A stretch of 64,000 bases of DNA from assembly GCA_043814965.1 (NCBI GenBank), contig JBDRJN010000033.1, forward strand, positions 1,379 to 65,378, given 5' to 3'. The notes beneath the pieces were generated by a model. It ran no database searches. It was not told the origin of the DNA and saw only the letters and a list, made by a program, of their open reading frames with translations. Below are positions 2,301 through 62,978 of this stretch, piece by piece (position 1 is the stretch's first letter; each line of letters opens with the position of its first letter). The translations under genes and the position numbers were made by a program. This DNA comes from Candidatus Omnitrophota bacterium (GTDB lineage Bacteria; Omnitrophota; Gorgyraeia; Gorgyraeales; Gorgyraeaceae).

Positions 2301-2519
2301 TACTAAAATGCCTAATAAAAGACTAAAATTTCAATTCGCTCACAATATCTCTTATCAACCTTAGGGTATGCTGTCCAAGCATTCAAGATAATACAGGTAT
2401 GTTATATATTTAAGTGCTGTTTTTTGTTACTCTTGACTAGGGAGGCTCATTAAAAAAGGCTTTTCAAGTAGTACTTTATTTGAACATATAGCCTCAGTTT
2501 TGACATTAACTAGTAATAA

Positions 2520-2770
2520 TAGTAGGACGTTCCATATAAGCGAATTTGAAAATTTAGATTATGAGCAGTTTGTCGGTTTTTAAAAGGCTGAAAACTGTAT
2601 GAGGTCGACACCATGCTTGTGTCGACCGAGTTTTTTCAGCCCCGACAAACTGTGATATAAAAGTCGACCCCCGATTAATATTATTATCTATTAATTAATA
2701 TTGCTACATTACAAGCAAAGAGAGGGGGAATTTTCAGTTGAGCTTATAGGGAACGTCCTACTATACCTCT
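2520..2770. mobile_element. MITE-like element bounded by ~23-bp inverted repeats (ATAGTAGGACGTTCC...); encloses a long nested hairpin
   Basis: Left end aatagtaggacgttccatataag versus right end cttatagggaacgtcctactat. Internal nested inverted repeats: cagtttgtcgg/ccgacaaactg, ggctgaaaac/gttttttcagcc and ggtcgacac/gtgtcgacc. No ORF inside. Confidence 0.45.
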
Positions 2771-2867: not shown

Positions 2868-3920
2868 ATGGCAATACTAATTACCAGTATGATATGGGTG
2901 TCTGTAGTCCTTGCGGTGGCTTTGGTCTTTTCAAGAAAGATCAAGGATAAATTAGTAAAAGACAACGAGGATAAGATCAATGTGCTTCGCTCAGAATGGA
3001 GTGATACTCTTTCTAGGAATACACAATTGATCCTGGACCAGATGAATGAGGCCAGGAAGCTTTCTCAAGATGTAAATAGCTCTATAAATAACAGGCTGGA
3101 TAATGCTACAAAGACTTTTGGCGATGTACAGAAGAGCCTTGGTTATCTCGGAGAGAGGGCCAAGGAGATATATGAGATAGGAAAGGATATATCCAGCTTA
3201 CAGGAGATCCTGAGGGCTCCAAAGATGAGAGGCGGGCTGGGGGAGCTCTTTTTGGAGAACCTATTAGGAGAGATATTGCCTCATAAAGACCTTTATGAGC
3301 TTCAGTATAATTTTAAAAGCGGGGAAAGGGTGGATGCGGTCATAAAGATAGGCAATAAGCTAGTAAGCGTTGATTCAAAGTTCCCTCTTGAGAGTTTCAG
3401 GAGGTTTATTGATGCAAAGGAAGAAGAGGATAAAAAGCGTTTTAAAAGGGAATTTGTAAAAGCAGTAAAGGACCATATAGATTCGATAGCTGCTAAATAT
3501 ATCCTTCCGGATGAAAATACCTATGATTTTGCATTGATGTATATACCTGCTGAAAATGTCTATTATGAGGCTATCATCAAAGATGATAATTTTGCAGATG
3601 GAAATTCTATTTTCTCGCAGGCTATATCCAAGAAAGTGATACCAGTCTCACCAAATAGTTTTTACGCGTATCTACAGGTCATAATCCTGGGTATCAGGGG
3701 CCTTCGCATAGAAAAAGATACTCAAGCTGTCATAAAGATGCTGGGGGCCTTAAAAGTGAACTTCTATAAATTCAGAGAGGAATTTAGTATACTAGGTTCG
3801 CATATAGAGAAGATAAAGTCCAGCTATGATAGGAGCGATAAGAGGCTGGATAGATTCGAGAACAAGCTATCCTCCATAGATTCTTTTGATAAAAAGAAAG
3901 AACCAAAAGAAATAGAATGA
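2868..3920 (+). CDS. rmuC: DNA recombination protein RmuC
   Basis: N-terminal transmembrane helix, coiled-coil region, and the conserved RmuC block KMRGGLGELFLENLLGEILP...VDAVIKIGNKLVSVDSKFPLESF. Confidence 0.75.
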   Translation: MAILITSMIWVSVVLAVALVFSRKIKDKLVKDNEDKINVLRSEWSDTLSRNTQLILDQMNEARKLSQDVNSSINNRLDNATKTFGDVQKSLGYLGERAKEIYEIGKDISSLQEILRAPKMRGGLGELFLENLLGEILPHKDLYELQYNFKSGERVDAVIKIGNKLVSVDSKFPLESFRRFIDAKEEEDKKRFKREFVKAVKDHIDSIAAKYILPDENTYDFALMYIPAENVYYEAIIKDDNFADGNSIFSQAISKKVIPVSPNSFYAYLQVIILGIRGLRIEKDTQAVIKMLGALKVNFYKFREEFSILGSHIEKIKSSYDRSDKRLDRFENKLSSIDSFDKKKEPKEIE

Positions 3921-3977
3921 TCCCGGAGAGCGGCTCAGTTTGGCTAGAGCGTCCGCCTTTAGGCGGAAGGCTCTGAG
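3921..3977 (+). pseudogene. tRNA-like 5' fragment: acceptor and D-arm resembling tRNA-Pro, with a short hairpin in place of the anticodon arm and no T-arm
   Basis: cggagagcggctcagtttggctagagcg matches 24 of 28 positions of the tRNA-Pro 5' half at 4234. It continues as tccgcctttaggcgga (5-bp stem, 6-nt loop), which cannot be a functional anticodon loop. No T-arm follows. Confidence 0.4.
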
Positions 3978-3979
3978 TT

Positions 3980-4231
3980 ATGTTTTATACTTATGTATTG
4001 AGAAGCAGAAAAAATAATAAGATATATAAAGGGCATACCAAAGATTTACAGAATAGATTGTCACAGCATAATACTGAGAATAGTAAAAAGAAATTTAGTT
4101 GTATAAATGGACCCTGGGAATTGATGTTTTTTGAAACTTTTAATACGAGGTCTGAAGCAATGAGGTATGAAAAGTTTTTAAAAACAGGCAAAGGCCGTGA
4201 ACATATAAGGGAAAAGATAGCTGAATTATAA
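3980..4231 (+). CDS. small GIY-YIG nuclease-domain protein (UPF0213/YhbQ-like)
   Basis: MFYTYVLRSRKNNKIYKGHTKDLQNRLSQHN...PWELMFFETFNTRSEAMRYEKFLKTGKGR contains the GIY-YIG signature: Y-x-Y-V-L, Y-K-G, R-L-x-Q-H-N and a downstream Glu. Wedged between the tRNA-like fragment and tRNA-Pro. Confidence 0.8.
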   Translation: MFYTYVLRSRKNNKIYKGHTKDLQNRLSQHNTENSKKKFSCINGPWELMFFETFNTRSEAMRYEKFLKTGKGREHIREKIAEL

Positions 4232-4233
4232 GG

Positions 4234-4311
4234 CGGGGAGTAGCTCAGTTTGGCTAGAGCGCTGCGTTCGGGACGCAGAGGCCGCTGGTTCAAGTCCAGT
4301 CTCCCCGACCA
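4234..4311 (+). tRNA. tRNA-Pro (anticodon CGG)
   Basis: Manual cloverleaf: acceptor CGGGGAG/CTCCCCG, D-arm GCTC-AGTTTGGCTA-GAGC, anticodon arm CTGCG-TTCGGGA-CGCAG, T-arm GCTGG-TTCAAGT-CCAGT, discriminator A, encoded CCA. Confidence 0.8.
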
Positions 4312-4324
4312 TAAGAATAGTTGT

Positions 4325-4402
4325 GGGGAGTGGACTTGTATTTTGTTAGAGCGTCCGCCTTGGGCGGAAGGCCGCTGGTTCAAGTCCAGTCTCCCCGACC
4401 AT
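4325..4402 (+). pseudogene. tRNA-like pseudo-copy: degenerate 5' part, hairpin in place of the anticodon arm, then an exact 33-nt copy of the tRNA-Pro 3' end
   Basis: 4369-4401 (aggccgctggttcaagtccagtctccccgacca) is identical to 4279-4311 of tRNA-Pro. No D-stem can be formed. The anticodon position holds tccgc-cttgg-gcgga (5-nt loop), the same hairpin type as at 3949. Confidence 0.5.
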
Positions 4403-6051: not shown

Positions 6052-7589
6052 AGAAACCTATTGTAATCCACCCATTTTTATTTACCGCGTTTCCGATCCT
6101 ATTTCTTTTTTATTATAATGTAGGAGAACTTGTTTTTTTTGATATCCTGGTCCCTCTAATCGTGTTACTGTTTTTTACATTTTTGTTGATACTGGTAATC
6201 CAGATATTTATTAGGGATAATTTAAAAACAGGTATTATAGTATCTATCTTTCTAACCTTATTTTTTTCTTATGGACATATATATGATATTTTAAATAAAT
6301 TTTTTCTAACCAGGCATAGATATATAATGCCGACATGGTGTATTGTTTTTAGCTATCTCTTATATATTGTTTTTAAGACAAAGAAAAAATTATTTAATAT
6401 TACAAAAGCGTTAAATATAGCATCTTTATCTTTAATTATAATTTTTCTTATAAATATTAGTATATATGAGATCAAATCAGCTTGCAGCATGAATGCTGAT
6501 ATAAAGTTAAAAGACATGAACTCAGGGAATGGGACATCTAGCAATATAAACGACTATAGAGATATTTATTATATTATTTTAGATGCGTATGCGAGTCAGG
6601 ATACCTTAAAAGAGGTCTATAATTACGATAATCAGGAGTTTATAGACTACCTGGTTAGTAAGGGTTTTTATGTAGCGACCAAGAGCTGTAGTAATTACCC
6701 ATTTACCTATTATTCGTTAGCCTCTTTTCTAAATATGTCTTATCTCGATGATTTAGCTTATCTATCCGGAAAATGGCCAAATGATTACAGGATTTTTTAT
6801 AATCTTATACAAGATAATAAAATAGTAAGATTTCTTAAGTCAAAAAAGTATAAATTTATATGTTTTCAATCAGGCGAAGGGGCTACGGATTATTATAAAA
6901 ATGCTGATTTAAATATAAGGAAAAATACATGGTGCGGCATAAAGAGGCCGGATTTTGTTATGATCTTGGCTAAAACCACAGCGATAGGGTATTTTATTAG
7001 GCCTTTAATGGCGGATTTTGCCAGAGAATTAAGGCTTTTTGTTCTTACTGAACTTGGAGAAATATATAAGATAAAAGGCCCAAAATTTATCTTTGCCCAC
7101 ATAATCTGCCCTCATTCTCCTTATGTATTTGGCGCGGATGGGCGATCTGTTTCAATATTAGAGCCAGAGATCACTATTAAAGATGTGGAGGAAGACAGAA
7201 AAGCGTATATAAACCAGCTAATATTCCTTAATAAAAAAGTTGAAAAACTTATTGAAGATATATTATCTAGATCAGAGACTCCCCCGGTCATTATACTGCA
7301 GGGAGACCATGGGACTAGATCAACGTTTCGTTCGTTAAAAAGATTAGATATGGATAATCTTACAGAGAAAAATCTTAAAGAAAGGATGCGTATACTTAAC
7401 GCATATTATTTACCGGGAGGTGGTAAGGATCTTTTGTATCCTTCTATAACGCCGGTCAATACCTTCAGGATAATATTTAATTTTTATTTTAGTTCAAGTT
7501 TTAAATTATTGGAAGACAGGAGTTATTTCTCTATTTATAAAGGCAGTTTTTATAAATTTATTGATGTGACTGATAAAGTTAAATATTAA
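6048..7589 (+). CDS. membrane-anchored sulfatase/LtaS-like (alkaline-phosphatase superfamily) protein
   Basis: About five N-terminal transmembrane helices, then an extracytoplasmic domain with YYIILDAYAS...HIICPHSPYVF...ILQGDHGTRS, typical of LTA synthase or phosphoglycerol/phosphoethanolamine transferase sulfatase folds. ATGA overlap with the upstream gene. Confidence 0.55.
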   Translation: MKKPIVIHPFLFTAFPILFLFYYNVGELVFFDILVPLIVLLFFTFLLILVIQIFIRDNLKTGIIVSIFLTLFFSYGHIYDILNKFFLTRHRYIMPTWCIVFSYLLYIVFKTKKKLFNITKALNIASLSLIIIFLINISIYEIKSACSMNADIKLKDMNSGNGTSSNINDYRDIYYIILDAYASQDTLKEVYNYDNQEFIDYLVSKGFYVATKSCSNYPFTYYSLASFLNMSYLDDLAYLSGKWPNDYRIFYNLIQDNKIVRFLKSKKYKFICFQSGEGATDYYKNADLNIRKNTWCGIKRPDFVMILAKTTAIGYFIRPLMADFARELRLFVLTELGEIYKIKGPKFIFAHIICPHSPYVFGADGRSVSILEPEITIKDVEEDRKAYINQLIFLNKKVEKLIEDILSRSETPPVIILQGDHGTRSTFRSLKRLDMDNLTEKNLKERMRILNAYYLPGGGKDLLYPSITPVNTFRIIFNFYFSSSFKLLEDRSYFSIYKGSFYKFIDVTDKVKY

Positions 7590-8391: not shown

Positions 8392-11138
<2,747 letters not shown>

Positions 11139-11153
11139 AAAAAGAGGGGTATT

Positions 11154-11660
11154 ATGATCAGAAATAGACATTTAAATATTTTTATTGTAGCAATGGCCCT
11201 AGTGTCTTTCTGCGGATGTGAAGCAGTCCAAAGAAAGTTCGTACGCAAGAAAAAGAAAGAAGAGATGATATCCGCTATAGTAAAGACAAAAGATTATAGC
11301 AAGGACCTCAGGGTGGATGAGCTATATAAAAAGCATTTCCTTTACTGGAAAGTTTGGCAGACAGAGCTCATAGACAGGCTGGACGCAACGCTTAAAAAAA
11401 GAGAAAGTTGTTATTTGTACACTCTTAGCAGCCTGGATGAGATGGTCAAATACCTGTCAGGGGCCAAAAAAGAGGAGCTAAAAGGTATAGTGAATGAGAT
11501 AAAGTCCATAGAAGGCCTTGTCTATAAAAAGAATCTTTTGGGCATGGAAAAGTATAAGATCAAGAATGTACTTGAGAAGACAAAAAGGACTATCTATAAG
11601 AACTTTTCTTTTGATGATGTAAAGGATTACTTAGAAGTCAAGGAAGTCTATGCTGATTAA
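11154..11660 (+). CDS. hypothetical lipoprotein
   Basis: Signal peptide with lipobox (VSFCGC); no recognisable domain. Confidence 0.45.
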   Translation: MIRNRHLNIFIVAMALVSFCGCEAVQRKFVRKKKKEEMISAIVKTKDYSKDLRVDELYKKHFLYWKVWQTELIDRLDATLKKRESCYLYTLSSLDEMVKYLSGAKKEELKGIVNEIKSIEGLVYKKNLLGMEKYKIKNVLEKTKRTIYKNFSFDDVKDYLEVKEVYAD

Positions 11661-13894: not shown

Positions 13895-15903
13895 GTAGAC
13901 CAAGACTGATAGACGTAGCTGTCAATTGTCCTGTGGAAGGGCTTTTTACATATTCTGTCCCGAAAGAATTAGAAAACGATATAAAAATAGGTTCTTTGGT
14001 AAAGGTGCCTTTTGGAAAAAAGAACCTGACTGGTTTTGCTGTTAAGTTCTCTTCAAATACCTATATAAAAAATATAAGGCCAATAACCGATATCATAAAT
14101 AAGGATATCACCTTGGACCCTATAATATTTGAGCTTTCCAAATGGATCTCGGAGTATTACTACTGTTCTTTGGGAGAGGCTATATCCGCTACTATGCCAG
14201 GAGTGCTTAAAAAACACTTATCCAAAAAAAGAGCCGGTAAGAAAAAAGGCAAAGAAGAGGAGTTTGAGTATAAAGACGGCTCGGATAAACACTTAGACCC
14301 TAATAAAGAACAAAGAGATGCCCTGGCTTCTATCAAAGATTGTATTGATAAAAAACTTCATAAAGTATTTCTCTTGCATGGTGTTACTGGAAGCGGTAAG
14401 ACAGAAGTATATTTGCAATCGATCCAGCATGCGTTGCACCTTGGTAGATCAAGCATTGTGCTTGTCCCTGAGATATCACTTACACCTCAGACCGTTGCCA
14501 GGTTCAAGGCAAGGTTTGGAGATAAGATCGCAGTGCTGCATTCGAGGCTCCTGGGTTCAGAGAGGCTTAGCGAGTGGCAGAGGATCAAAAAAGGAGAGGC
14601 CCGGATAGTGGTAGGCGCAAGGTCCGCTGTCTTTGCGCCGTTAACTGATCTTGGCTTGATAGTAGTAGATGAGGAACACGAGACATCTTATAAACAGGAG
14701 AGTGTTCCAAGATACAACGCAAGGGATGCTGCTATCAAGAGGTCAGAACTATCGAATGCGGTCACTATCCTTGGCAGCGCCACACCATCCCTTGAGACAT
14801 TCTATAAAGCCCAGAACAAACTTTATGTCTTGGTCGAACTGCCTGAAAGAATAGATTCGAGGCTGATGCCAAAAGTAGATATCATAGACATGCGCGATGA
14901 GGCAAACAGGAAAAAGACGCCCTCTATATTCAGTTATTCTTTGAAAAGCTGGATAGAAAAAGATATTGCTCAGGGAAAACAGGTCATGTTATTTTTAAAC
15001 AGGAGAGGTTTTTCTACTTTTATAAGTTGTAGAAAATGCGGGCATGTGATCACCTGCAAAAAGTGCAGCGTAAGCCTCACATATCATTTTTATAAGAAAA
15101 AGCTGATCTGCCATCATTGTAGTTATAATATAGACCCGCCTAACGTTTGCCCGGAATGTAATTCCAGTTATGTTAAATATTGGGGCATGGGCACTGAAAG
15201 AGTAGAAAGCGAACTCCATAGGTATTTTCCTAATATAAGGATAGCTCGCATGGACACGGATGCTACCAATAAAAGAGGGTCGCATGAAAAGGTCCTTTCG
15301 AAGTTCAAAGACCACAAGATAGATATACTTATTGGTACGCAGATGATAGCAAAGGGCCATGATTTTCCAAAAGTCACTTTAGTGGGGGTTGTCTCAGCTG
15401 ATACTGCGCTTAACCTGCCTGATTTTAGATCTGGCGAGAGGACGTTTAATCTCCTGACACAAGTCGCTGGCCGTGCTGGAAGAAGCGATCTCGGCGGAAG
15501 GGTTATTATACAAAGCTACACCCCGCATCATTATGCTATACAAGCAGCAAAAGACCATGACTATGGTACTTTTTATGCCAAGGAAATAGAACTGCGCAAG
15601 GAACTTATGCTCCCGCCTATCACTCATATGGTGAGTCTTACCTTGTGCTCAAGGAACGAGGAAAAGGTCTTAAAAATAGCTGAAGCATTGAGAAATAAAT
15701 TCAAGAAATTAGACAAGTCCAACAAGATAGATATTGTCGGGCCTGCGCCAGCCCCTATATCGCGCATGAAAGGCCAATATAGATGGAACCTATTCCTGAA
15801 GTCAAAGGCAGTCGAAGATATTATACCGCTATTAAAAAAGACCCTTTCTTTTCGTAAAAAAGAAAAGGGCGTTGCCGTGATAGTCGATGTGGACCCATAT
15901 TAA
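13891..15903 (+). CDS. priA: primosomal protein N' (PriA helicase)
   Basis: Walker [19 protein letters not shown] box, CxxC zinc-finger pairs, and a C-terminal helicase domain. Confidence 0.9.
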   Translation: MSRPRLIDVAVNCPVEGLFTYSVPKELENDIKIGSLVKVPFGKKNLTGFAVKFSSNTYIKNIRPITDIINKDITLDPIIFELSKWISEYYYCSLGEAISATMPGVLKKHLSKKRAGKKKGKEEEFEYKDGSDKHLDPNKEQRDALASIKDCIDKKLHKVFLLHGVTGSGKTEVYLQSIQHALHLGRSSIVLVPEISLTPQTVARFKARFGDKIAVLHSRLLGSERLSEWQRIKKGEARIVVGARSAVFAPLTDLGLIVVDEEHETSYKQESVPRYNARDAAIKRSELSNAVTILGSATPSLETFYKAQNKLYVLVELPERIDSRLMPKVDIIDMRDEANRKKTPSIFSYSLKSWIEKDIAQGKQVMLFLNRRGFSTFISCRKCGHVITCKKCSVSLTYHFYKKKLICHHCSYNIDPPNVCPECNSSYVKYWGMGTERVESELHRYFPNIRIARMDTDATNKRGSHEKVLSKFKDHKIDILIGTQMIAKGHDFPKVTLVGVVSADTALNLPDFRSGERTFNLLTQVAGRAGRSDLGGRVIIQSYTPHHYAIQAAKDHDYGTFYAKEIELRKELMLPPITHMVSLTLCSRNEEKVLKIAEALRNKFKKLDKSNKIDIVGPAPAPISRMKGQYRWNLFLKSKAVEDIIPLLKKTLSFRKKEKGVAVIVDVDPY

Positions 15904-15971
15904 AATAGGGACACATCCCCTTTTTTACCTATTTTTTAATTTTTTTAAAAAAAGGGGATGTGTCCCTATTT
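15903..15971 (+). terminator. 25-bp perfect inverted repeat hairpin after priA, flanked by T-runs
   Basis: aaaatagggacacatcccctttttt ... aaaaaaggggatgtgtccctatttt. Confidence 0.65.
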
Positions 15972-16042
15972 TAAAACTGTATTGTAACAGTTTGTGAAGT
16001 GTGCTAAAATAAAAAATACTCGCAGTTAATATAAGGAGATGC

Positions 16043-24156: not shown

Positions 24157-24226
24157 GTGTATATTTATAGAATTATACAAGTTAGTTGTTAGTTTGTATT
24201 GTACCTAGTTGGGTAGGTTTTTTAAC

Positions 24227-24447
24227 CATAGCAAGGTCCTTCCTAGTAAGCTCAGGTGAAATTTTTCCCTCATCTCGAAACTTCGGAACTCGGGGTCGTC
24301 TTTTAAGGGAGCATTTTATATAGGGCTAAAAAAACTCGGCAGATTCTCTATGTATGGCCTTAAACAGTTTTTAGCCTATATTTAAAAGCTAAAATACCCA
24401 GTAAAAGACTAAAATTTCAATTTGCTTACTAGGAAGGACCTTGCTAT
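24227..24447. mobile_element. MITE-like ~220-bp element with 24-bp perfect terminal inverted repeats ATAGCAAGGTCCTTCCTAGTAAGC
   Basis: Left repeat at 24228-24251 is the reverse complement of 24424-24447. No ORF inside. The interior carries motifs (gctcaggtgaaattttt; aaaagactaaaatttcaattYgctYac) found again at 2318 and 56436. Confidence 0.55.
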
Positions 24448-24643
24448 TGTTATGGCTAACTAGAGTTCTGTCTTCAGTTATGTAGGTTAACGCGAGGTGT
24501 TTGATGATAGGTGGCGCAATATGATGTGTCACCTAAATGTTCAAATATTATAATAAGAATATATTTTTTAGTTGATTTGAGGGGGGTAGTATGTTATATA
24601 ATAGTAGCCTATAGATCATATAAGATATATGGAGGTTAGATAT

Positions 24644-28890: not shown

Positions 28891-29862
28891 ATGGTTAAAT
28901 ATATTATAAAAAGAATAATACATCTTATACCTCTTTTAATAGGGATAACTATTATTACATTTTTCGTAATACACCTTGCCCCGGGCAGGCCTACTGACCT
29001 TGAGGGGCAGTTCAATCCAAAGGTGTCGCTTGAAGCAAGGGAAAGGCTTGAGCATCTCTATGGGCTGGATAAGCCTATCCCTATACAGTACATTGATTGG
29101 TTGAAGAGGCTTATAAAGTTTGACTTTGGCGTGAGTTTTATTGACTCCAGGCCTGTAGTGGATAAGATATTTGAACGCATTCCAGTCACGCTTACTATAA
29201 ATTTCTTTTCAATGTTCTTTATACTGCTTATAGGCATACCTATAGGTGTAAGTTCTGCCTTGAAAGAAGGAAGCGCGTATGATAGGTTGATGACATTGTT
29301 CGTCTTTATAGGATTTTCCGTGCCTACGTTTTGGCTTAGCCTTATACTCATGGATATTATAGGTGTAAGGTGGGGGGTACTTCCTATATCAGGAATAAAA
29401 TCATTCGAATTCGACAAGTTTAATTATATTGAAAAGGTGATTGATATGGCAAGGCATATGATACTGCCTGTATTTGTCTCAGCTTTTGGAGGCTTAGCAG
29501 GCATATCCCGTTATATGAGAAGCAATATGGTAAGCGTATTAAAGGAAGACTATATACGTACTGCCAGGGCAAAAGGCTTAAGTGAAAAAGATGTATTGTA
29601 TAAGCATGCTTTAAAAAATGCATTACTTCCGATAGTGACTATATTGGGGCTTTCTATACCGGGCCTGATCGGAGGAAGCGTCATATTTGAATCTATATTT
29701 GGTATCCCGGGGATGGGGAGGCTTTTTTATGAATCAGTGATGTCAAGGGATTACCCTGTCATCATGGGTGTGCTTTTTATAGGCGCAAACCTGACCCTCA
29801 TAGGAAATCTCCTGGCTGATATAATGTACGCATTTGTGGACCCGCGTATAAAGCTGGAATAA
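28891..29862 (+). CDS. ABC transporter permease (OppB/DppB-like)
   Basis: Six transmembrane helices and the EAA permease loop. Confidence 0.8.
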
Positions 29863-29991
29863 GAGTAGGTTGTAAGCAGTATATGCAGTTTGATCTTTGT
29901 AATGCATTAGATAGTGGATAACGCTGATCAGTTTAACTGTGTAGTTGTCAAGCCTAAAGAAAAGCGTTGCTGGTTCGAGCGGGCACGGTGT

Positions 29992-30157
29992 CTTTCTGCT
30001 GGTGAGGGGCCTTCAAAAAGACGCTTCGCCAGCATTAGTGATTTGTAAAGTTGGGCTTCGCTCCGTTTTGTTTTGACAGGCTAACTTTATAGTAGTGCAG
30101 TATCTATTGGTTACGCAAAACAAAAAGGCTTTTTTCATGCCCCTCACCAGCAGAAAG
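29992..30157 (+). ncRNA. conserved structured repeat, copy 1 (candidate small RNA or MITE): ~125-nt core closed by inverted repeats tctttctgctggtgaggggc / gcccctcaccagcagaaaga
   Basis: Core cttcaaaaagacgctYcgcc...ggcttcgctccgttttgttttgacagg...gcaaaacaaaaaggcttttttca is ~85% identical to 54273-54393. It has an internal stem cgttttgttttg / caaaacaaaaag followed by a T-tract. The closing stem differs between the two copies but stays complementary. Confidence 0.45.
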
Positions 30158-30273
30158 ACGAACGAGAAACGGCACTGAGCGAAGAAGAGCCACGCTGGGG
30201 CAATCAAGCGTCTTTTTGTAGGCTTGACAGATACAGTTGCAGTATTATTTTTACCAGAGATAAACATTAGAAT

Positions 30274-31065
30274 ATGAATAAGCTAATATTTTTTGGAATA
30301 GTCATAGTGGGTTTTTTCGTAATGGTGGCTATCTTTGCGCCATTTTTAACCCCCTGTGATCCTGGAGAGATAGATATTGATAATATATTGGTAGGCCCTT
30401 CAAGAGCGCATATCTTTGGTACAGATAGCCTGGGAAGGGACTTATTTGCGAGGATGCTTTATGGTTCAAGGATATCTCTTTTAGTGGGGTTGATAGCAGT
30501 CGGCATAGCTAGCTTTATAGGTATAATACTTGGTTCATTGGCCGGATATTATGGCGGGTGGGTAGATAGATCTATTATGAGGCTTGTAGATATCATGCTT
30601 TGTTTCCCGACATTTTTCCTGATACTTTCTGTGATAGCATTGATGGAGCCGAGTATTATTAATATCATGGTAGTAATAGGTGTTACTAGCTGGATGGGGG
30701 TTTCAAGGCTGATAAGGGCCGAGATATTGAGCTTAAAAGAGAGGAATTTTATATACGCTGAAAAAGCAATAGGCGCAAGTGACTTCAGGATAATAACCAG
30801 GCACCTTATCCCCAATGCAATAGCGCCGGTCCTGGTAAGTATTACTCTGGGTGTGGCAGCAGCGATACTTGTAGAGTCGAGCTTAAGTTTTCTTGGTATA
30901 GGCGTGCAGCCCCCTACTCCTAGCTGGGGAAATATACTTAGCGAAGGAAAATCAGTCATGGGAGCTGCGTGGTGGATGATGCTTTTTCCTGGAATGGCTA
31001 TATTTATAACAGTACTTGGATATAATCTATTGGGAGAGGGCCTGAGAGAAAGATTTTTAAAATAA
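30274..31065 (+). CDS. ABC transporter permease (OppC/DppC-like)
   Basis: Permease fold with the EAA motif region. Confidence 0.8.
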   Translation: MNKLIFFGIVIVGFFVMVAIFAPFLTPCDPGEIDIDNILVGPSRAHIFGTDSLGRDLFARMLYGSRISLLVGLIAVGIASFIGIILGSLAGYYGGWVDRSIMRLVDIMLCFPTFFLILSVIALMEPSIINIMVVIGVTSWMGVSRLIRAEILSLKERNFIYAEKAIGASDFRIITRHLIPNAIAPVLVSITLGVAAAILVESSLSFLGIGVQPPTPSWGNILSEGKSVMGAAWWMMLFPGMAIFITVLGYNLLGEGLRERFLK

Positions 31066-32792: not shown

Positions 32793-32818
32793 GTAGGGGA
32801 GCCTTAAGGCTCCCCTAC
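32793..32818. repeat. REP-like GC palindrome GTAGGGGAGCCTTAAGGCTCCCCTAC, copy 2
   Basis: Immediately after the oppF-like stop. Confidence 0.7.
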
Positions 32819-32978
32819 ATTGTGGATAACTTCTAACCTGGTTAGCACCCAAGTAGAACGTCTACCTATATACAGTCTTGCCTTGACAAACCCCCTAAAA
32901 TCAGTAAACTTTTTATACGTCTATATAAATATATATAGTTACTATATATAATACATATGAGAAAGGAGAATTTTTGGC

Positions 32979-47078: not shown

Positions 47079-49073
47079 ATGCCGAGATTTAAATTAGTCA
47101 GTTCATTTAGGCCAGAGGGCGACCAACCTAAGGCGATAAAGGAAATAGTCGAAGGCTTAAAAAAAGGCTGCAATGCCCAGACTCTATTGGGGGTCACTGG
47201 CAGCGGTAAGACTTTTACTATGGCCAATGTGATAGAGAGGGTCCAGAGGCCTACGCTTGTCATATCTCACAACAAGACGCTCGCAGCCCAGCTTTATAGT
47301 GAATTCAGGGAGTTCTTTCCTAATAATGCAGTAGAGTATTTTGTGAGTTATTACGACTATTACCAACCCGAGGCATATGTCCCGCATACTGATACTTATA
47401 TCGAAAAAGACGCCTCAATAAATGACAATATAGACAGGCTAAGGCTCAGGGCTACTAGCGCTCTGATGTCAAGGAGAGATGTGGTGATAGTCTCAAGCGT
47501 GTCGTGTATATATGGATTGGGTTCTCCAGAGGACTATAAAGAGCAATTATTATTTCTAAAAGAAGGGGACAGTATAAAGATCAAGGATCTATTGATAAGC
47601 CTTGTAAATATCCATTATACAAGGAATGACATTGATTTCAGGCGTGGATGTATGAGGGTCAGGGGAGATATAGTCGATATATTTCCAGCATATGAAGAGA
47701 CTTGTTTCAGGCTGTATTTTTTTGGGGACAAGGTCGAGAAGATAGATGAGATAGACCCATTGACAGGAAAGACTTTAAGCAATGTAGAAAAGATAGCCGT
47801 ATATCCTGCAAAGCATTTTGTCACAACAAAAGAGAGATTGGACAAGGCCATAGAGACCATAAGGATAGAGCTGGAAGAAAGAGTAAGAGATCTTAATGAC
47901 CAGAATAAGCTTCTTGAGGCGCAGCGTCTTTATTCCAGGACCAATTATGACATAGAGATGCTCAATGAGATAGGCTATTGTAATGGTATAGAGAATTATT
48001 CAAGACATATAAGCGCCAGGGCGCCTGGCTTGAGGCCTAACTGCCTTATTGATTATTTCCCGGAAGATTTTCTTACTATAATAGATGAGAGCCATGTCAC
48101 ACTTCCTCAGCTTAGGGGTATGTATAAGGGCGACAGGGCACGTAAGCAGGTATTGGTAGATTATGGGTTCAGGCTGCCTTCTGCGCTCGACAACAGGCCT
48201 TTAAGTTTCGAGGAATTTATGGATGTTGTAGGCCAAAAGACATATGTCTCAGCTACCCCATCGGATTATGAACTAGAGAATTCCAGTCAGGTGGTAGAAC
48301 AGCTGATAAGGCCAACAGGACTTATAGACCCTGAGATCATAGTAAGGCCTGTAAACGGACAGATAGATGACCTGGTCGAGGAAATAAAGTATAGGATCGA
48401 TAAAGATCAAAGGGTCCTTGTGACTACATTGACTAAAAGGATGTCAGAGGACCTGGCAAGCTATCTCTCGGGGCTTAAATTAAGAGTCAAGTATATTCAT
48501 TCTGAGATCAATACCATAGAGCGCACAGAGATACTCCAGGACCTTAGAAAGAAGAAATTCGATTGTCTGGTAGGTATAAATCTTTTAAGAGAAGGCCTGG
48601 ACTTGCCTGAAGTGACTTTGGTCGCAATATTGGATGCTGATAAAGAGGGTTTTTTAAGGTCATGGTCGTCTTTGATACAAGTCGCTGGCCGGGCTGCGAG
48701 ACATGTGGATGGAAAAGTAATAATGTACGCAGATACACTTACAAAATCCATGGAAAGGGCAATAAGAGAGACCAATAGGCGCAGGGTCAAACAGTTTGAA
48801 TTCAATAAAAAACATGGCATTACTCCGAGATCTATTGAAAAGGCGATAAAAGAAGGGATAGAAAGCGCTAAAAAGGCTGAGGAGATAGTCATGGATTCAT
48901 GCGGCCAGACAGAAGATGAATTTGAAAGAGAGTCATTGATATCCGAGTTACAGAAAGAGATGGAGCTCTGCGCAAGGAACTTGCAGTTTGAGCGCGCAGC
49001 AGAATTACGCGACAAGATAAAAGAACTAGAGACGTTTTCCAACCCAATAAGGAAACTGTCCCAAACCCAATAA
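47079..49073 (+). CDS. uvrB: excinuclease ABC subunit B
   Basis: Walker [11 protein letters not shown], helicase motifs, beta-hairpin, and C-terminal UvrC-interaction coiled coil. Confidence 0.9.
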
Positions 49074-49086
49074 GGAAACTGTCCCC
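49041..49086 (+). repeat. 23-bp tandem direct repeat x2 spanning the uvrB stop codon
   Basis: aacccaataaggaaactgtccca repeated; followed by a partial inverted copy (tttccttattg) and a second short tandem repeat tcggatgtctt x2 at 49151-49174. Confidence 0.7.
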
Positions 49087-49189
49087 TTTTATTTATATGA
49101 CATTTTCCTTATTGAGGAAAGGGCACTTTCCCGAACAGCTTGGAAAACGTCTCGGATGTCTTTCGGATGTCTTTATTAAAAAATAGGAC

Positions 49190-51745: not shown

Positions 51746-53131
51746 ATGAAAAAGCAGGCTGCAAAAGAAAGGATCAAAAATTTTAAAGAAGTCGCGCTTG
51801 GCCTTGATGAGGCTGAAGCTATAAAAGAGGCGTCCAGGTGTCTATTTTGTAAAAAACCTTTCTGTTCTCTCAAGTGTCCTGTGGAGATAGATATCCCTGA
51901 CTTTATCAATGCTATAAAAAATAAAGACTTTCAAAAGGCTATCGAGGTAATAAAAAAGGACAATAACCTTCCGGGGATATGCGGAAGAGTCTGCCCTCAG
52001 GAAGACCAGTGCGAAGGCGCTTGCATACTTGGCAAGAAGGGGACTCCTATAAATATAGGCGCGCTTGAGAGATTTGCAGCTGATCGGGAGATGGAAAATG
52101 GGTCACGGGTCACGGGTCACGGGTCACGGTTAGAAAAAGAAAAGGTAGCGGTCATAGGTTCAGGGCCTGCAGGGCTTACATGCGCAGGAGATCTGGCTAA
52201 GCATGGATACAAGGTAACTATATTCGAGGCGCTTCATACCGCAGGAGGGGTCTTAGTATATGGTATCCCTGAATTTCGTTTGCCAAAAGAGATCGTGAAA
52301 AAGGAAGTAGATTTTTTAAAGTCTTTGGGCGTAGAGGTCATTACAAATTTTATTATAGGAAAGACCTCCACTCTAGAAGAGCTGTTCAATAAAGGGTATA
52401 AAGCTGTATTTGTAGGAACTGGCGCAGGACTGCCAAGTTTTATGAAAATACCAGGAGAAAACCTCAACAGGGTGTATTCATCAAATGAACTTTTAACAAG
52501 AGCTAACTTGATGAAGGCATATCTTTTTCCGGATTATGACACGCCTATAAATATAGGAAAGAATGTAGCTGTAATAGGCGGCGGGAATACTGCGATGGAT
52601 TCAGCTCGCGTATCTTTACGCCTCGGGGCTAGAAAAGTCTATATAGTTTATAGGAGGAGCGAAAAAGAGCTGCCAGCGCGTAAAGAAGAGATAGAGAACG
52701 CAAAGGAAGAAGGCATAGAATTTCATGTATTGACCCTACCCAAAGAGATACTGGGTGACGATAAGGGGTTTGTGAAAGGCATGAACTGTATAAAGATGGA
52801 CCTTGGAGAACCAGATTCATCGGGCAGGCGAAGGCCAGTGCCTATAGAAGGTTCAGATTTTTTTATGGATGTAGATACAGTGTGTGTTGCAATAGGACAG
52901 AGCCCAAATCCGGTTTTTTTGAGTGCAACGCCAGGGCTTGAATTGGACAGATGGAACAAGATAAAGGTCGACCTTAAGACGCAGGCTACTAATATAGAAG
53001 GTGTTTATTCAGGAGGCGATGCTGCATGCGGCGGAGATGATACTGTCATAGCTGCAATGGGCGCTGGCAAAAAAGCAGCCAGATCAATGGATAAATATTT
53101 AATAGGGTTAAGGGATAAGGGTAATGGGTAA
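51746..53131 (+). CDS. glutamate-synthase-small-subunit-like NAD(P)H oxidoreductase (NfnB/GltD family)
   Basis: Two 4Fe-4S Cys motifs (CLFCKKPFCSLKCP; CGRVCPQEDQCEGAC) and FAD/NADPH Rossmann motifs GSGPAGL and GGGNTAMD. Confidence 0.75.
   Translation: MKKQAAKERIKNFKEVALGLDEAEAIKEASRCLFCKKPFCSLKCPVEIDIPDFINAIKNKDFQKAIEVIKKDNNLPGICGRVCPQEDQCEGACILGKKGTPINIGALERFAADREMENGSRVTGHGSRLEKEKVAVIGSGPAGLTCAGDLAKHGYKVTIFEALHTAGGVLVYGIPEFRLPKEIVKKEVDFLKSLGVEVITNFIIGKTSTLEELFNKGYKAVFVGTGAGLPSFMKIPGENLNRVYSSNELLTRANLMKAYLFPDYDTPINIGKNVAVIGGGNTAMDSARVSLRLGARKVYIVYRRSEKELPARKEEIENAKEEGIEFHVLTLPKEILGDDKGFVKGMNCIKMDLGEPDSSGRRRPVPIEGSDFFMDVDTVCVAIGQSPNPVFLSATPGLELDRWNKIKVDLKTQATNIEGVYSGGDAACGGDDTVIAAMGAGKKAARSMDKYLIGLRDKGNG
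52100..52127 (+). repeat. heptanucleotide tandem repeat (GGGTCAC)x4 inside the nfnB-like gene
   Basis: gggtcac x4, encoding ...NGSRVTGHGSRLEK... Confidence 0.9.
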
Positions 53132-54194
53132 CGGAAAAAGAGTGTTAGTTGCGATGAGCGGAGGTGTGGATAGTTCTGTAGCAGCCGCTATCTTAAACGA
53201 AAAAGGCTATGAAGTAATCGGCGCCACGATGAAAATATGGCCCAAAGAGCATTGTACTAAAGTAAAGGAAAGATCCTGTTGTTCTTTGAAAGATATAGAA
53301 GATGCCAAAAAGGTCTGCTACTTATTAGATATACGACATTACGTCTTGAATTTCGAGAGCGTCTTTAAGAAAGAGGTCATAGATTATTTTAGTAGTGAAT
53401 ACCTTAAAGGCCGTACTCCCAATCCTTGCATAGTATGCAATGAAAAGGTAAAGTTCGGCGCATTGCTTAAAAAAGCCAAAGAGCTCGAGTGTATGTATGT
53501 AGCAACCGGGCACTATGCCAATATAGAGCATGATAGGGAGTATAGATTAAAAGAGAGCGCTGACAAGACAAAAGACCAGTCCTATGTCTTGTTCTCATTG
53601 CGATATAAAGACCTGAAACATATTCTCTTTCCTGTAGGAGATTTCAAGAAGAAAGAGATCAAAAAGAAGGCCGAGGAGTTAGGCCTCTCGCTTCATAATA
53701 AACTTGAGAGCCAGGAGATATGTTTTATCCCGGATAATGATTATTCTAGATTCCTGGAAGAATATTACAATGTAACTCCCAAAAAAGGGGATATAGTCAA
53801 TGCCTCGGGTAAAATATTGGGCAAGCATGACGGGTTCTGGAATTTTACAATAGGACAGCGTAAAGGCCTTGGGATAGGATATAAGGAGCCCCTTTATGTA
53901 GTCAATATAAACCCTGACAAAAATGAGGTAAAGGTAGGCACTATAAAAGAGACAAAGAGAAAGAGTTTTGTAGTAAATAATATAAATTGGTTATCAAAAG
54001 AAGATATCAGTGAAGCATATGTAAAGATAAGGTACAATCATCCGAAGAAAAGAGCCAAGATAACAACTATAGACAAGGATAAGCTAAGAGTTGATTTTAT
54101 AGAAGAAGAGAGCGCTATAACTCCTGGACAAGCAGCTGTTTTTTATGACTCTGAGTATGTCATAGGCGGCGGCTGGATAGAGAGGATAGTATGA
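53124..54194 (+). CDS. mnmA: tRNA-specific 2-thiouridylase MnmA
   Basis: PP-loop SGGVDSS and catalytic Cys residues. Confidence 0.85.
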   Translation: MGNGKRVLVAMSGGVDSSVAAAILNEKGYEVIGATMKIWPKEHCTKVKERSCCSLKDIEDAKKVCYLLDIRHYVLNFESVFKKEVIDYFSSEYLKGRTPNPCIVCNEKVKFGALLKKAKELECMYVATGHYANIEHDREYRLKESADKTKDQSYVLFSLRYKDLKHILFPVGDFKKKEIKKKAEELGLSLHNKLESQEICFIPDNDYSRFLEEYYNVTPKKGDIVNASGKILGKHDGFWNFTIGQRKGLGIGYKEPLYVVNINPDKNEVKVGTIKETKRKSFVVNNINWLSKEDISEAYVKIRYNHPKKRAKITTIDKDKLRVDFIEEESAITPGQAAVFYDSEYVIGGGWIERIV

Positions 54195-54258
54195 TATTCT
54201 TTCTGTTAGGCAAAGGCCTACTAAAAACAGTTCTAATCTGATTAATAAGTTGTTTTAG

Positions 54259-54407
54259 CTGGCAAGGTCTTCAAAAAGACGCTCCGCCAGAATTAGTGAT
54301 TTGTAAAGTTAGGCTTCGCTCCGTTTTGTTTTGACAGGCCAACTCTACAGTAATGCATGATCCGTCAGTTGCGCAAAACAAAAAGGCTTTTTTCAAGACC
54401 TTGCCAG
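54259..54407 (+). ncRNA. conserved structured repeat, copy 2: same core as 30011-30137, closed by ctggcaaggtcttcaaaa / ttttcaagaccttgccag
   Basis: Core ~85% identical to copy 1 with the same internal stem plus T-tract. The closing helix has a different sequence but still pairs. Confidence 0.45.
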
Positions 54408-54429
54408 CTAAAACAGCACTTATTATTAT

Positions 54430-55227
54430 ATGAACAAACTCGATAGATTAAAAAATGAATTAAAAAAACTTAAGAGCGTTGTAGTGGCATTCTCCGGAGG
54501 GGTTGATTCAAGCCTTTTATTAAAGGTTGCAAGTGATGTCTTGCCTAAGGACAAGACGCTCGCAGTCACCGCGGCATCTCCTACTTACACAAGTTCAGAA
54601 TTAAAACAGGCTAAGAGATTTGCAAGTTCCCTGGGCGTGAAACATCGGATAATCCGTACAGATGAATTGAAGGATGAGAAGTTCATAAAAAATCCTGTAG
54701 ATAGATGTTATTATTGCAAGAGAGAACTGTTCAAAAAGCTTACCCAGATCGCTAAAAAAGACAGGTTTTCCTCAGTCATAGATGCTACTAATTACGACGA
54801 TAGAGCGGATTATAGGCCTGGTAGTCTTGCCAAAAAAGAATTTAAAGTTGCAAGCCCTCTTGCGAAGGCGCGTTTTACTAAAAAAGATATACGTGATCAT
54901 TCCAGGAAAATGCGCCTTAAGACATGGGATATGCCTTCTATGGCGTGCCTGGCTTCGAGGTTTCCTTATGGGCAAAAAATAACATTTAAGAACCTGAGAA
55001 AGATATCTTTGGCTGAAGAAGCGATAAAAAAGCTTGGCATAAAACAGGTAAGGGTAAGGTTTCATGGCGATATAGCCAGGATCGAAATAGACAAAAAAGA
55101 CATAAAAAGATTTGTTAAAGATGGTTTTTATGATAGAATAATTAACCGTTTGAAATCCCTGGGGTTTCTCTATGTAGTGCTGGACCTTGAAGGATACAGG
55201 ACAGGAAGTTTGAACGAAGTGTTGTGA
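54430..55227 (+). CDS. PP-loop ATP pyrophosphatase, LarE-like sulfur transferase family
   Basis: SGGVDSS PP-loop; conserved Cys in CLASRFPYG; ~265 aa. Confidence 0.6.
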   Translation: MNKLDRLKNELKKLKSVVVAFSGGVDSSLLLKVASDVLPKDKTLAVTAASPTYTSSELKQAKRFASSLGVKHRIIRTDELKDEKFIKNPVDRCYYCKRELFKKLTQIAKKDRFSSVIDATNYDDRADYRPGSLAKKEFKVASPLAKARFTKKDIRDHSRKMRLKTWDMPSMACLASRFPYGQKITFKNLRKISLAEEAIKKLGIKQVRVRFHGDIARIEIDKKDIKRFVKDGFYDRIINRLKSLGFLYVVLDLEGYRTGSLNEVL

Positions 55228-56494: not shown

Positions 56495-56520
56495 GTAGGG
56501 GAGCCTTAAGGCTCCCCTAC
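56495..56520. repeat. REP-like GC palindrome, copy 3
   Basis: GTAGGGGAGCCTTAAGGCTCCCCTAC. Confidence 0.7.
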
Positions 56521-56571
56521 ATTATATAAGTCGGTAGTCGGTAAATAAGTCGGTAATCGGCAGGGGAGTCA

Positions 56572-56597
56572 GTAGGGGAGCTTTAAAGCTCCCCTAC
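56572..56597. repeat. REP-like GC palindrome, copy 4
   Basis: GTAGGGGAGCTTTAAAGCTCCCCTAC. Between copies 3 and 4 lies the tandem repeat taagtcggta(g/a)tcgg x2. Confidence 0.7.
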
Positions 56598-56719
56598 CTT
56601 AAATAAGGTTTAGGTGAGAGCGAGAAAAAACGAGAGTAAGATTTTCACGCTGGGAAAATTTTACGTCCTCGAAAACAGAACACACTGATAGATAGGGTGT
56701 AATAATATAAAAATAATTA

Positions 56720-61619: not shown

Positions 61620-62563
<944 letters not shown>

Positions 62564-62630
62564 TTTGATAGAGTTTAAGGTAGTGTAGGATTCGAATGGA
62601 GTCCGCTATATACGACGAATAGGAGTATAT

Positions 62631-62691
62631 GTTTAGCGGACGGATGGCCGACCCGCCCAAAGGCGGGCGCCGAATCCTCCTCTGCCCACCA
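62631..62691 (+). repeat. tRNA-Tyr-associated element: conserved module tttagcggacggatggccgacccgcccaaaggcgggcgc plus an exact 21-nt copy of the tRNA-Tyr 3' end (CGAATCCTCCTCTGCCCACCA)
   Basis: 62671-62691 is identical to 62539-62559. The preceding ~38 nt are near-identical to 62871-62908 downstream of tRNA-Thr. Confidence 0.7.
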
Positions 62692-62772
62692 AAAATTTTA
62701 TTATACAAAATTTTTGGTGAGGTCTCGTCCGTCAGTGAAACTGACGAGACGGACCCACCATGATTTTATTAA

Positions 62773-62848: not shown

Positions 62849-62870
62849 TAATTTTAGAAGTAGAAGCTTA

Positions 62871-62929
62871 TATAGCGGACGGATGGCCGACCCGCCAAAG
62901 GCGGACGCCGATTCCTCTCGCCAGCTCCA
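62871..62929 (+). repeat. tRNA-Thr-associated element: the same conserved module plus an exact 21-nt copy of the tRNA-Thr 3' end (CGATTCCTCTCGCCAGCTCCA)
   Basis: 62909-62929 is identical to 62828-62848. Module tatatagcggacggatggccgacccgccaaaggcggacgc matches the Tyr-associated copy. Confidence 0.7.
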
Positions 62930-62978
62930 GATCTTTTTAAAAGCATAAGCTCCATAGTAAACTGTGTGCGAGGTTTTT

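Follow-up and report, generated by a model that had tools for sequence, protein, structure and literature searches.

Structured palindromic repeats between operon genes of a Candidatus Omnitrophota bacterium

The element between mnmA and larE

The stretch of DNA analysed here, hereafter the window, comprises 64,000 nucleotides (nt) of a genome from Candidatus Omnitrophota (assembly GCA_043814965.1, contig JBDRJN010000033.1), a phylum without cultivated members whose cells are very small. The subject of this study is a non-coding element within the 235-nt spacer that runs from the mnmA stop codon (54194) to the larE start codon (54430). Both flanking genes are on the plus strand, and their identities, proposed in a first-pass annotation made from the sequence alone, were upheld by database models: mnmA (53124..54194) encodes a tRNA 2-thiouridine synthase (PRK00143, 442.6 bits), and larE (54430..55227) encodes an ATP-dependent sacrificial sulfur transferase (TIGR00268, 329.7 bits against a cut-off of 150). 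The same annotation had described the element as the second copy of a structured repeat, and this is indeed the case. A direct repeat of 135 nt, 87% identical, links positions 54266-54400 with 30008-30142, where copy 1 (29990..30159, plus strand) is flanked by genes for OppB-like and OppC-like permeases. Both copies fold far beyond what is seen in shuffled sequences, with z-scores of -4.9 and -6.1 on the plus strand and -5.8 and -6.2 on the minus strand, while none of 200 shuffled controls folded as well as the copies. No coding frame is open across the copies, which contain stops in all six frames. We refer to this repeat as family A.

Copy 2 forms a long hairpin at 54251-54415, or 54243-54425 when an outer extension is included, giving a repeat of ~165-180 nt. 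The interval originally assigned to it, 54259-54407, thus located the right element but cut its ends ~8-16 nt short on each side. In an inverted-repeat scan the arms of the closing helix (54251-54277 and 54389-54415) are 27 nt long and 96% complementary. A minimum-free-energy fold of the whole spacer carries the helix outward past a 2-nt bulge, through pairing of 54243..54250 (TAATAAGT) with 54418..54425 (ACTTATTA), both on the plus strand, such that the structure ends 4 nt 5' of the larE start codon. The closing helix of copy 1 (29990-30020 and 30129-30159) has arms of 31 nt that are 90% complementary. The outer sequence of this helix is mostly dissimilar between the two copies and yet is paired in both, as had been claimed.

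The layout of copy 2, all of it on the plus strand, derives from a consensus fold of nine copies together with a covariance-model alignment. The closing helix P1 has a copy-specific sequence and pairs 54251..54271 with 54395..54415; a small internal loop separates it from P2. Within P1 lies the structured core of the family (54272..54394, ~123 nt), which is 88% identical to that of copy 1 and 64-70% identical to those of seven copies in a related genome, described below. The 5' strand of P2 is AAAAAGAC (54273..54280) and its partner is GGCTTTTT (54385-54392). The P3/P4 domain (54281..54319), which contains GGCTTCGCTCC, is closed by pairing of 54281-54288 with 54311-54319 and holds a small hairpin, although an alternative local hairpin is possible. 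The internal stem recognized in the first-pass annotation exists in copy 2 and corresponds to P5 (54321..54386, CCGTTTTGTTTTG / CAAAACAAAAAGG), in which 54325-54333 pairs with 54374-54382; the apical region that caps it (54334-54373) is the most variable part of the element across the copies.

It could be argued that a stable stem with a T run (GGCTTTTTT) near its 3' side, combined with a single sigma-70-like match in the 3' arm (1 found, 0.6 expected), marks an intrinsic terminator or attenuator, or else a shared operator or riboswitch-type leader. It should be emphasized, however, that the T-tract, which had been correctly reported at 54385-54392, is paired with AAAAAGAC in P2 and enclosed by P1, and is therefore not the tail of a terminator hairpin. 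Indeed, a consensus scan found no terminator-like sites at either copy, and promoter-like matches are at chance level, the -10-like sequence ending at the start codon. The same element precedes unrelated genes (larE, oppC, carB and others), the genes concerned overlap in relatives, and Rfam returned no match even at E<=10, the hits on both copies being chance-level alignments below 18 bits. Explanations of this type are thus essentially excluded. The leader or operator of a single regulon was rejected on the grounds that the downstream genes are unrelated and that relatives lack the spacer, in agreement with the earlier reasoning that the neighbours of the two copies, mnmA/larE and oppB/oppC, have nothing in common. 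A search of the whole window against Rfam 15 at gathering score identified five tRNAs and nothing else, and membership of a described RNA family (riboswitches, ribozymes, 6S RNA, small RNAs or retron msr) was discarded in view of the lack of a covariance-model match. A retron msr-msd was likewise ruled out, as no reverse transcriptase adjoins any of the nine copies, those in the window being flanked by mnmA/larE and oppB/oppC.

Distribution, conservation and insertion of family A

Homologues of MnmA assign the window to Candidatus Omnitrophota; the best match, at 71% identity, is in the closest available relative, the Candidatus Omnitrophota metagenome-assembled genome (MAG) GCA_043821705.1. 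Seven family-A copies were identified in this genome. One occupies the mnmA-larE spacer, as copy 2 does in the window, and the others are scattered over unrelated loci such as the carA-carB junction. Family A has therefore been recorded at nine loci in two genomes (2 in the window, at least 7 in the relative), and the genes 3' of these copies include larE, oppC, carB and a dTMP-kinase-like gene, among others. A degenerate 28-mer covering window and relative gave seven matches in genomes, all of them in GCA_043821705.1, and none in metagenome contigs or in IMG/VR; an exact 21-mer of the core had no match in GTDB genomes or JGI metagenomes. The covariance model of the family (R1) revealed no further or degenerate copies, either in all the loci (default filters) or in the window (filters off). 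Searches of plasmids and phages with blastn in distant mode were negative, and in the literature we found no account of the repeat content or structured RNAs of Omnitrophota. Family A is a real, non-random and previously undescribed lineage-specific repeat family.

The cores of the relative's copies are 92-98% identical to one another. The figure is 88% for the two window copies and 64-70% between the genomes, a range that includes the pair occupying the same mnmA-larE locus. Copies in one genome (88-98%) are therefore more alike than copies across genomes (64-70%). On sequence evidence, paralogues that are closer than a same-locus pair would mean either that the family spread within each genome after the lineages split or that its copies evolved in concert; both are DNA-level dynamics. 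The P1 arms follow a different pattern, with identities among copies that range from 29 to 100% and stand at 29% for the two in the window. Within the relative, variation clusters in P1 and the apical hairpin (~20% or more), while ~100 nt of core are near-invariant. In all the loci examined, neither end of the element was found apart from the ~165-nt unit. One copy, at locus L004, combines the 5' arm of one P1 type with the 3' arm of another, which fits recombination between copies or a chimera of MAG assembly.

The homogeneity of the copies within a genome, and the mixed arms at L004, which recombination between copies would generate, are features expected of a structural or protein-binding DNA repeat comparable to REP/BIME sequences (bound by gyrase, IHF or Pol I), homogenized by gene conversion and acting in chromosome organization as double-stranded or cruciform DNA. 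Such a repeat would also account for the fold being equally good on both strands and for the variation in P1 being confined to Watson-Crick pairs. Against this, the L004 chimera could be an artefact of MAG assembly, a palindromic site provides no cause for the strict orientation described below, a protein site in duplex DNA needs no covariation of inner multi-branched helices, and the arrival of the element at loci that are empty in relatives is left unexplained. We regard this explanation as minor and rather improbable.

Conservation of pairing is pronounced. In the covariance-model alignment 96.4% of cells contain standard pairs, compared with 87.4 ± 0.8 in shuffles, and 17 pairs are altered on both sides, compared with 6.2 ± 1.9. 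In P1, 12 of the 15 pairs are doubly changed and single-sided (wobble) changes occur in two cells only. Four pairs of the inner helices are compensated between the two genomes: two in P2 (GC<->AU and AU<->GC), one in P3/P4 (UA<->CG) and one in P5 (AU<->GC). RNAalifold, however, assigned the consensus a lower energy on the minus strand (-39.7 kcal/mol) than on the plus strand (-32.9 kcal/mol), and mismatches in P1 are A-C as frequently as G-U. Because the minus strand folds equally well or better, and because A-C mismatches are as common as G-U, the structure alone is compatible with selection on either strand and on either RNA or DNA.

These data bear on the main rival to a mobile origin, namely that family A is a structured RNA module used by the host and embedded in its operons. 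In such a scheme the closing helix might be a site of RNase III-type processing or mRNA stability, the element might uncouple or tune the cistrons, or the ~125-nt core might be released as a stable small RNA produced from several operons. Compensation is seen in the inner multi-branched helices as well as in the foldback stem, which argues for a role of this kind, as does the near-invariance of ~100 nt of core next to a drift of ~20-40% in P1 and the apical hairpin. The retention of 64-70% identity across two genomes with MnmA proteins that share only 71% identity, and an operon uninterrupted by a terminator, point in the same direction. In contrast, the minus strand folds at least as well as the plus strand (the energies above), the changes in P1 are nearly all full Watson-Crick swaps with few G-U pairs, a pattern resembling complementarity maintained at the level of DNA, and the mismatches there are A-C as often as G-U. 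Furthermore, the paralogues are more alike than the same-locus pair, the host operons are unrelated in function, and close lineages have overlapping genes without the element. An RNA module of this type is unlikely, although it is the strongest of the competing explanations.

All nine family-A copies (9/9) lie between co-directional genes and are sense to them (two-sided p ~0.004), a finding that supports an RNA module but is confounded with the direction of replication. Every plausible gene (>=120 amino acids) of the 64-kb window is on the plus strand, and orientation to transcription and orientation to replication are inseparable because all these genes share one strand.

Comparison with relatives indicates that the element was inserted. 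The gene order mnmA, larE, tilS, ftsH is conserved in relatives, and in two of them (L002 and L010) the mnmA stop codon overlaps the larE start codon (…TAATG…). At the corresponding locus of the closest relative (L001) the two genes are 363 nt apart, and in this spacer a family-A copy precedes a repeat of a second type. Similarly, the gap between oppB and oppC is 411 nt in the window and 1-3 nt in two relatives (L012 and L013) whose OppB proteins are 83% and 82% identical to that of the window. As the same genes overlap, or lie 1-3 nt apart, in these relatives, both window spacers are insertions. None of the element-bearing gene pairs of the closest relative lies in the window, and reciprocal empty sites were thus not found. 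In another Omnitrophota MAG, GCA_018817035.1 (L011), a 201-nt mnmA-larE spacer is occupied by an unrelated hairpin-bounded element (11078-11278), and the presence of a different element suggests that this junction is a recurrent landing site. The L011 element has an outer helix of CCTAACTTCAC / GTGAAGTTAGG and an interior rich in TTCGAGCGAAG-type motifs.

Possible marks of insertion are visible in the sequence as direct repeats. TATGA occurs on the plus strand at 54190..54194, where it includes the mnmA stop codon, and again at 54429..54433, where it includes the larE start codon; GAATA bounds the oppB-oppC spacer at 29857-29861 and 30270-30274. Removal of 54195-54433 in silico gives …ATAGTATGAACAAAC…, an ATGA stop/start overlap that resembles the TAATG overlaps of the relatives. 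As marks of insertion these 5-bp repeats are suggestive and not proof.

Family A is also nested with other repeat families. The 411-nt oppB-oppC spacer that holds copy 1 (29863..30273, plus strand) is almost entirely one nested hairpin which, from the outside to the tip, consists of outer helices (~29931-29966 / 30209-30241), a family B shell and family A. The shell around copy 1 is TTCGAGCGGGCACGGT ... CACGCTGGGGCAATC, and further unique helices enclose it. In the closest relative each family-A copy sits inside a family C collar (…GAGCGAATTTGAAAATT … AATTTTCAnnTGAGC…), and family B (TTCGAGCGGGCACGG … CGCTGGGGGAATCCGAGCGGTGCTG) comes after family A at 5 of 7 loci. In different copies of family B, different inserts occupy the same tip position.

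The enclosing families were also observed in their own right. The family B shell, which can also be read as TTCGAGCGGGCACGG … GAAGCGAAGGATTCCCACGCTGGGGGAATCCGAGCGGTGCTG and encloses copy 1 in the window (29947-29989 plus 30160-30228), was located in L001 (11278-11430, and 5913-6081 on the minus strand), L004 (~3490-3680), L008 and L009. Family C is present in the window at 2519-2764 (plus strand) and 24223-24452 (minus strand), with a fragment at 2303-2343, and in L001 at 6125-6348. It is found in both orientations, with copy-specific outer helices of 29-36 nt and a conserved, structured interior (GTTTGTCGG…GGCTGAAAACT…GGTCGACAC/GTGTCGACC…AGTTTTTTCAGCC CCGACAAAC); the copy at 2480-2800 had no Rfam match at E<=1. 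A fourth repeat type in the relative (…TTTAGAGCGAGATCGAGCCTAACTAAAGGCGAAAGC…GAGCTCTAAACCGTAGAACACGGCGCGGTGTTCCAGCGC…) has long copy-specific closing helices and adjoins family A, as in the carA-carB spacer; it was placed at L006 5890-6100, at ~620-900 of the spacer in L005, and in L007. A motif common to the families, GAGCGAAG / TTCGAGCGG, was considered and set aside as marginal: GAGCGAAG occurs 6 times against 1.65 expected, and TTCGAGCGG, with one mismatch allowed, is not enriched.

Just 5' of copy 2 is a small hairpin without the core (CTGTTAGGC-aaag-GCCTA(ctaaa)AACAG; 54203..54230, plus strand) whose sequence is similar to that of the inner P1 arms in the family-A copies of the relative. 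CTGTTAGGC occurs once in the window against 0.30 expected per 64 kb; the similarity was spotted post hoc and is suggestive only. The hairpin may be what remains of a further family-A copy (a relic or footprint), or an empty landing hairpin; no solo P1-type hairpins were found in the relative's loci.

A probable mobile element and its known counterparts

We favour the view, to which we assign a probability of roughly 0.55, that copy 2 is a non-autonomous palindromic element similar to miniature inverted-repeat transposable elements (MITEs) and REPINs, that it is co-transcribed with its operon, and that it is tolerated because it folds compactly. This view draws on the dispersed copies, the sites that are empty in relatives, the direct repeats, the pattern of identities, the supported fold, the nesting with other families and the failure of competing identifications. 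Like MITEs, family A is short, non-coding, multi-copy and dispersed (~165 nt, nine copies, each at its own locus, across two genomes), and, as in REPINs, pairing is kept across copies (in 96.4% of cells). According to this model, family A, or a small composite carrying it, would have been inserted where the stop codon of mnmA and the start codon of larE once overlapped as ATGA, and copy 1 likewise at the oppB-oppC junction. The conservation of the core and of closing-helix pairing, but not of the helix sequence, suggests that whatever machinery duplicates or retains the element recognizes a folded single strand, be it single-stranded DNA or RNA, rather than the sequence of terminal inverted repeats. 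The element is most likely transcribed within the operon mRNA, since there is no terminator and it is always sense between co-directional genes. Co-transcription of mnmA and larE across it is strongly implied, given that the same gene pairs overlap or abut in relatives and that no terminator-like site was found. In the mRNA the element would collapse to one long hairpin, bringing the stop and start codons close again; in the folded spacers only ~24 (copy 2) and ~33 (copy 1) unpaired nt are left between them. This regained closeness could preserve translational coupling, and the insertions might thereby be tolerated.

Several observations weigh against the mobile-element model. Sense orientation of all nine copies is unexpected for neutral insertion of DNA and suits a role at the level of RNA equally well. 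No autonomous partner (transposase, RAYT or reverse transcriptase) was found in the 64-kb window or in ~70 kb of the relative; indeed no transposase lies beside the repeats, and the open reading frames that neighbour those in the window are housekeeping genes. The direct repeats are short and AT-rich, enclose the whole composite spacers rather than family A, and could reflect microhomology or simply follow from the stop and start codons that each junction requires. The alignment behind the pair counts was fitted to the structure and samples two lineages only, and both genomes from which the family is known are MAGs. Finally, the termini of family A vary while a ~100-nt core is conserved, whereas in classical MITEs it is the terminal inverted repeats that are maintained and the interior that drifts. 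A classical MITE was thus rejected: the arms vary (29% identity between the window copies), the core is 88-98% identical and no transposase is adjacent. It is because of the variable termini, the conserved core and the lack of a visible partner gene that we do not file family A under this class.

A more tentative proposal, which we consider doubtful, takes one of two forms: family A is either a module that is recognized by its fold and inserts at the tips of hairpins, or a multi-copy structured RNA that is embedded in operons and processed from their mRNAs. In the former case, family A and its B and C shells would form a hitherto undescribed type of element in which the folded ~100-nt core, and not the ends, is recognized, building onion-like nested palindromes within operons. 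The arms might then be kept complementary by the copying process itself, for example fold-back or template-switch synthesis.

The mobile-element model invites comparison with described systems, of which REPINs and REP-BIME elements, mobilized by RAYTs (Y1 transposases similar to those of IS200/IS605), are the first to consider. These elements resemble family A in being short, non-coding, extragenic and multi-copy, in forming a long hairpin whose pairing is preserved by compensating changes, in showing greater similarity within a genome, and in that recognition is thought to be of the folded single strand. A REPIN, however, consists of two inverted ~25-nt REPs around a short, unimportant spacer, while in family A the arms vary and a ~120-nt multi-helix core is kept. 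Moreover, no RAYT was seen in the 64-kb window or in ~70 kb of the relative, and the copy number of family A appears low (2 per 64 kb, and at least 7 in the relative); REP-RAYT systems have tens to hundreds of copies per genome, with the repeats flanking the RAYT gene.

The ERIC/IRU, Correia (NEMIS), RUP and BOX repeats are likewise imperfect palindromes of 100-200 nt that lie between operon genes and are co-transcribed with them, and their RNA hairpins may be cleaved by RNase III or RNase E or alter mRNA stability. Nested and mosaic copies occur in this group, and BOX is modular. Family A shares no sequence similarity with these repeats, as judged by the absence of Rfam, plasmid and phage matches; they have conserved termini, defined TA-like target duplications and both orientations, in contrast to the variable termini and, so far, exclusively sense orientation of family A.

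The nesting observed here (A within a C shell, A within a B shell, and the tip of B filled by different inserts) is reminiscent of the Russian-doll arrangements produced by elements that target hairpin loops or palindromes, such as IS1397/ISKpn1 in REP loops, IS110/IS1111-family members in REPs, and class C group II introns at terminator stems. Those elements are autonomous and carry genes, whereas the modules described here are non-coding and ~165 nt long, and their targeting of tips is suggested by the arrangement. Integron attC sites also conserve structure over sequence, are recognized as a folded single strand, and lie between co-oriented genes in the same orientation. In attC, however, the ends (R and L boxes) are conserved and the centre is variable, the opposite of family A, the flanks of which are syntenic housekeeping genes and not cassettes, with no integrase present. 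Family A is thus ordinary in kind, being an interspersed palindromic repeat, and unusual in design, with variable ends, a conserved folded core, nesting and, so far, sense orientation only.

On this evidence the tightly packed, translationally coupled operons of Omnitrophota have been invaded by hairpin-shaped non-coding inserts that stack inside one another and are always aligned with transcription. If the inserts are mobile, the combination of a conserved core with free termini implies a mode of recognition unlike that of ordinary MITEs; if they are RNA modules of the host, they would represent a new multi-copy structured RNA. In either case family A offers a natural experiment on the tolerance of insertions between coupled genes, and its copies are useful as markers for strain typing, although they are also a trap for MAG assembly. 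For the annotation of the window, copy 2 should not be described as a regulator of mnmA or larE.

Other features of the window

Two other long intergenic hairpins, at 15900-15974 and 49029-49153, are unrelated in sequence to family A, the covariance model of which scores them only marginally; one has perfect arms of 27 nt and the other arms of 55 nt that are 75% complementary. A palindrome, GTAGGGGAGCYTTAARGCTCCCCTAC, is present in four copies 3' of genes (2275-2303, 32793-32821, 56495-56523 and 56572-56600), two of which share a 42-nt inverted flank (2260-2301 / 56571-56612, 98%). These palindromes probably represent a hairpin of terminator-like or REP-like type that recurs in the window.

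The genes for tRNA-Tyr, tRNA-Thr and tRNA-Pro are each followed, ~60-130 nt 3', by a unit that ends in a copy of the 3' half of the T arm, the 3' acceptor strand and the CCA of that tRNA. These units, at 62560-62700 and 62849-62930 (after tRNA-Tyr and tRNA-Thr) and at 4325-4402 (after tRNA-Pro), contain a CCGCC-loop-GGCGG hairpin and a conserved TAGCGGACGGATGGCCGA motif that is absent from the tRNA-Pro unit, and were called by neither ARAGORN nor Rfam. The tRNA-Pro unit includes an exact 34-nt duplicate (4279-4312 = 4369-4402). The units look like att-type duplications or mimics of tRNA ends. Directly upstream of tRNA-Pro (4234-4311) is an open reading frame for an 83-amino-acid GIY-YIG nuclease (3980-4231; PF01541, 66.2 bits), itself preceded by a sequence resembling the 5' half of a tRNA (3924-3975), and the segment 3924-4231 may be a small mobile nuclease cassette within a tRNA locus.

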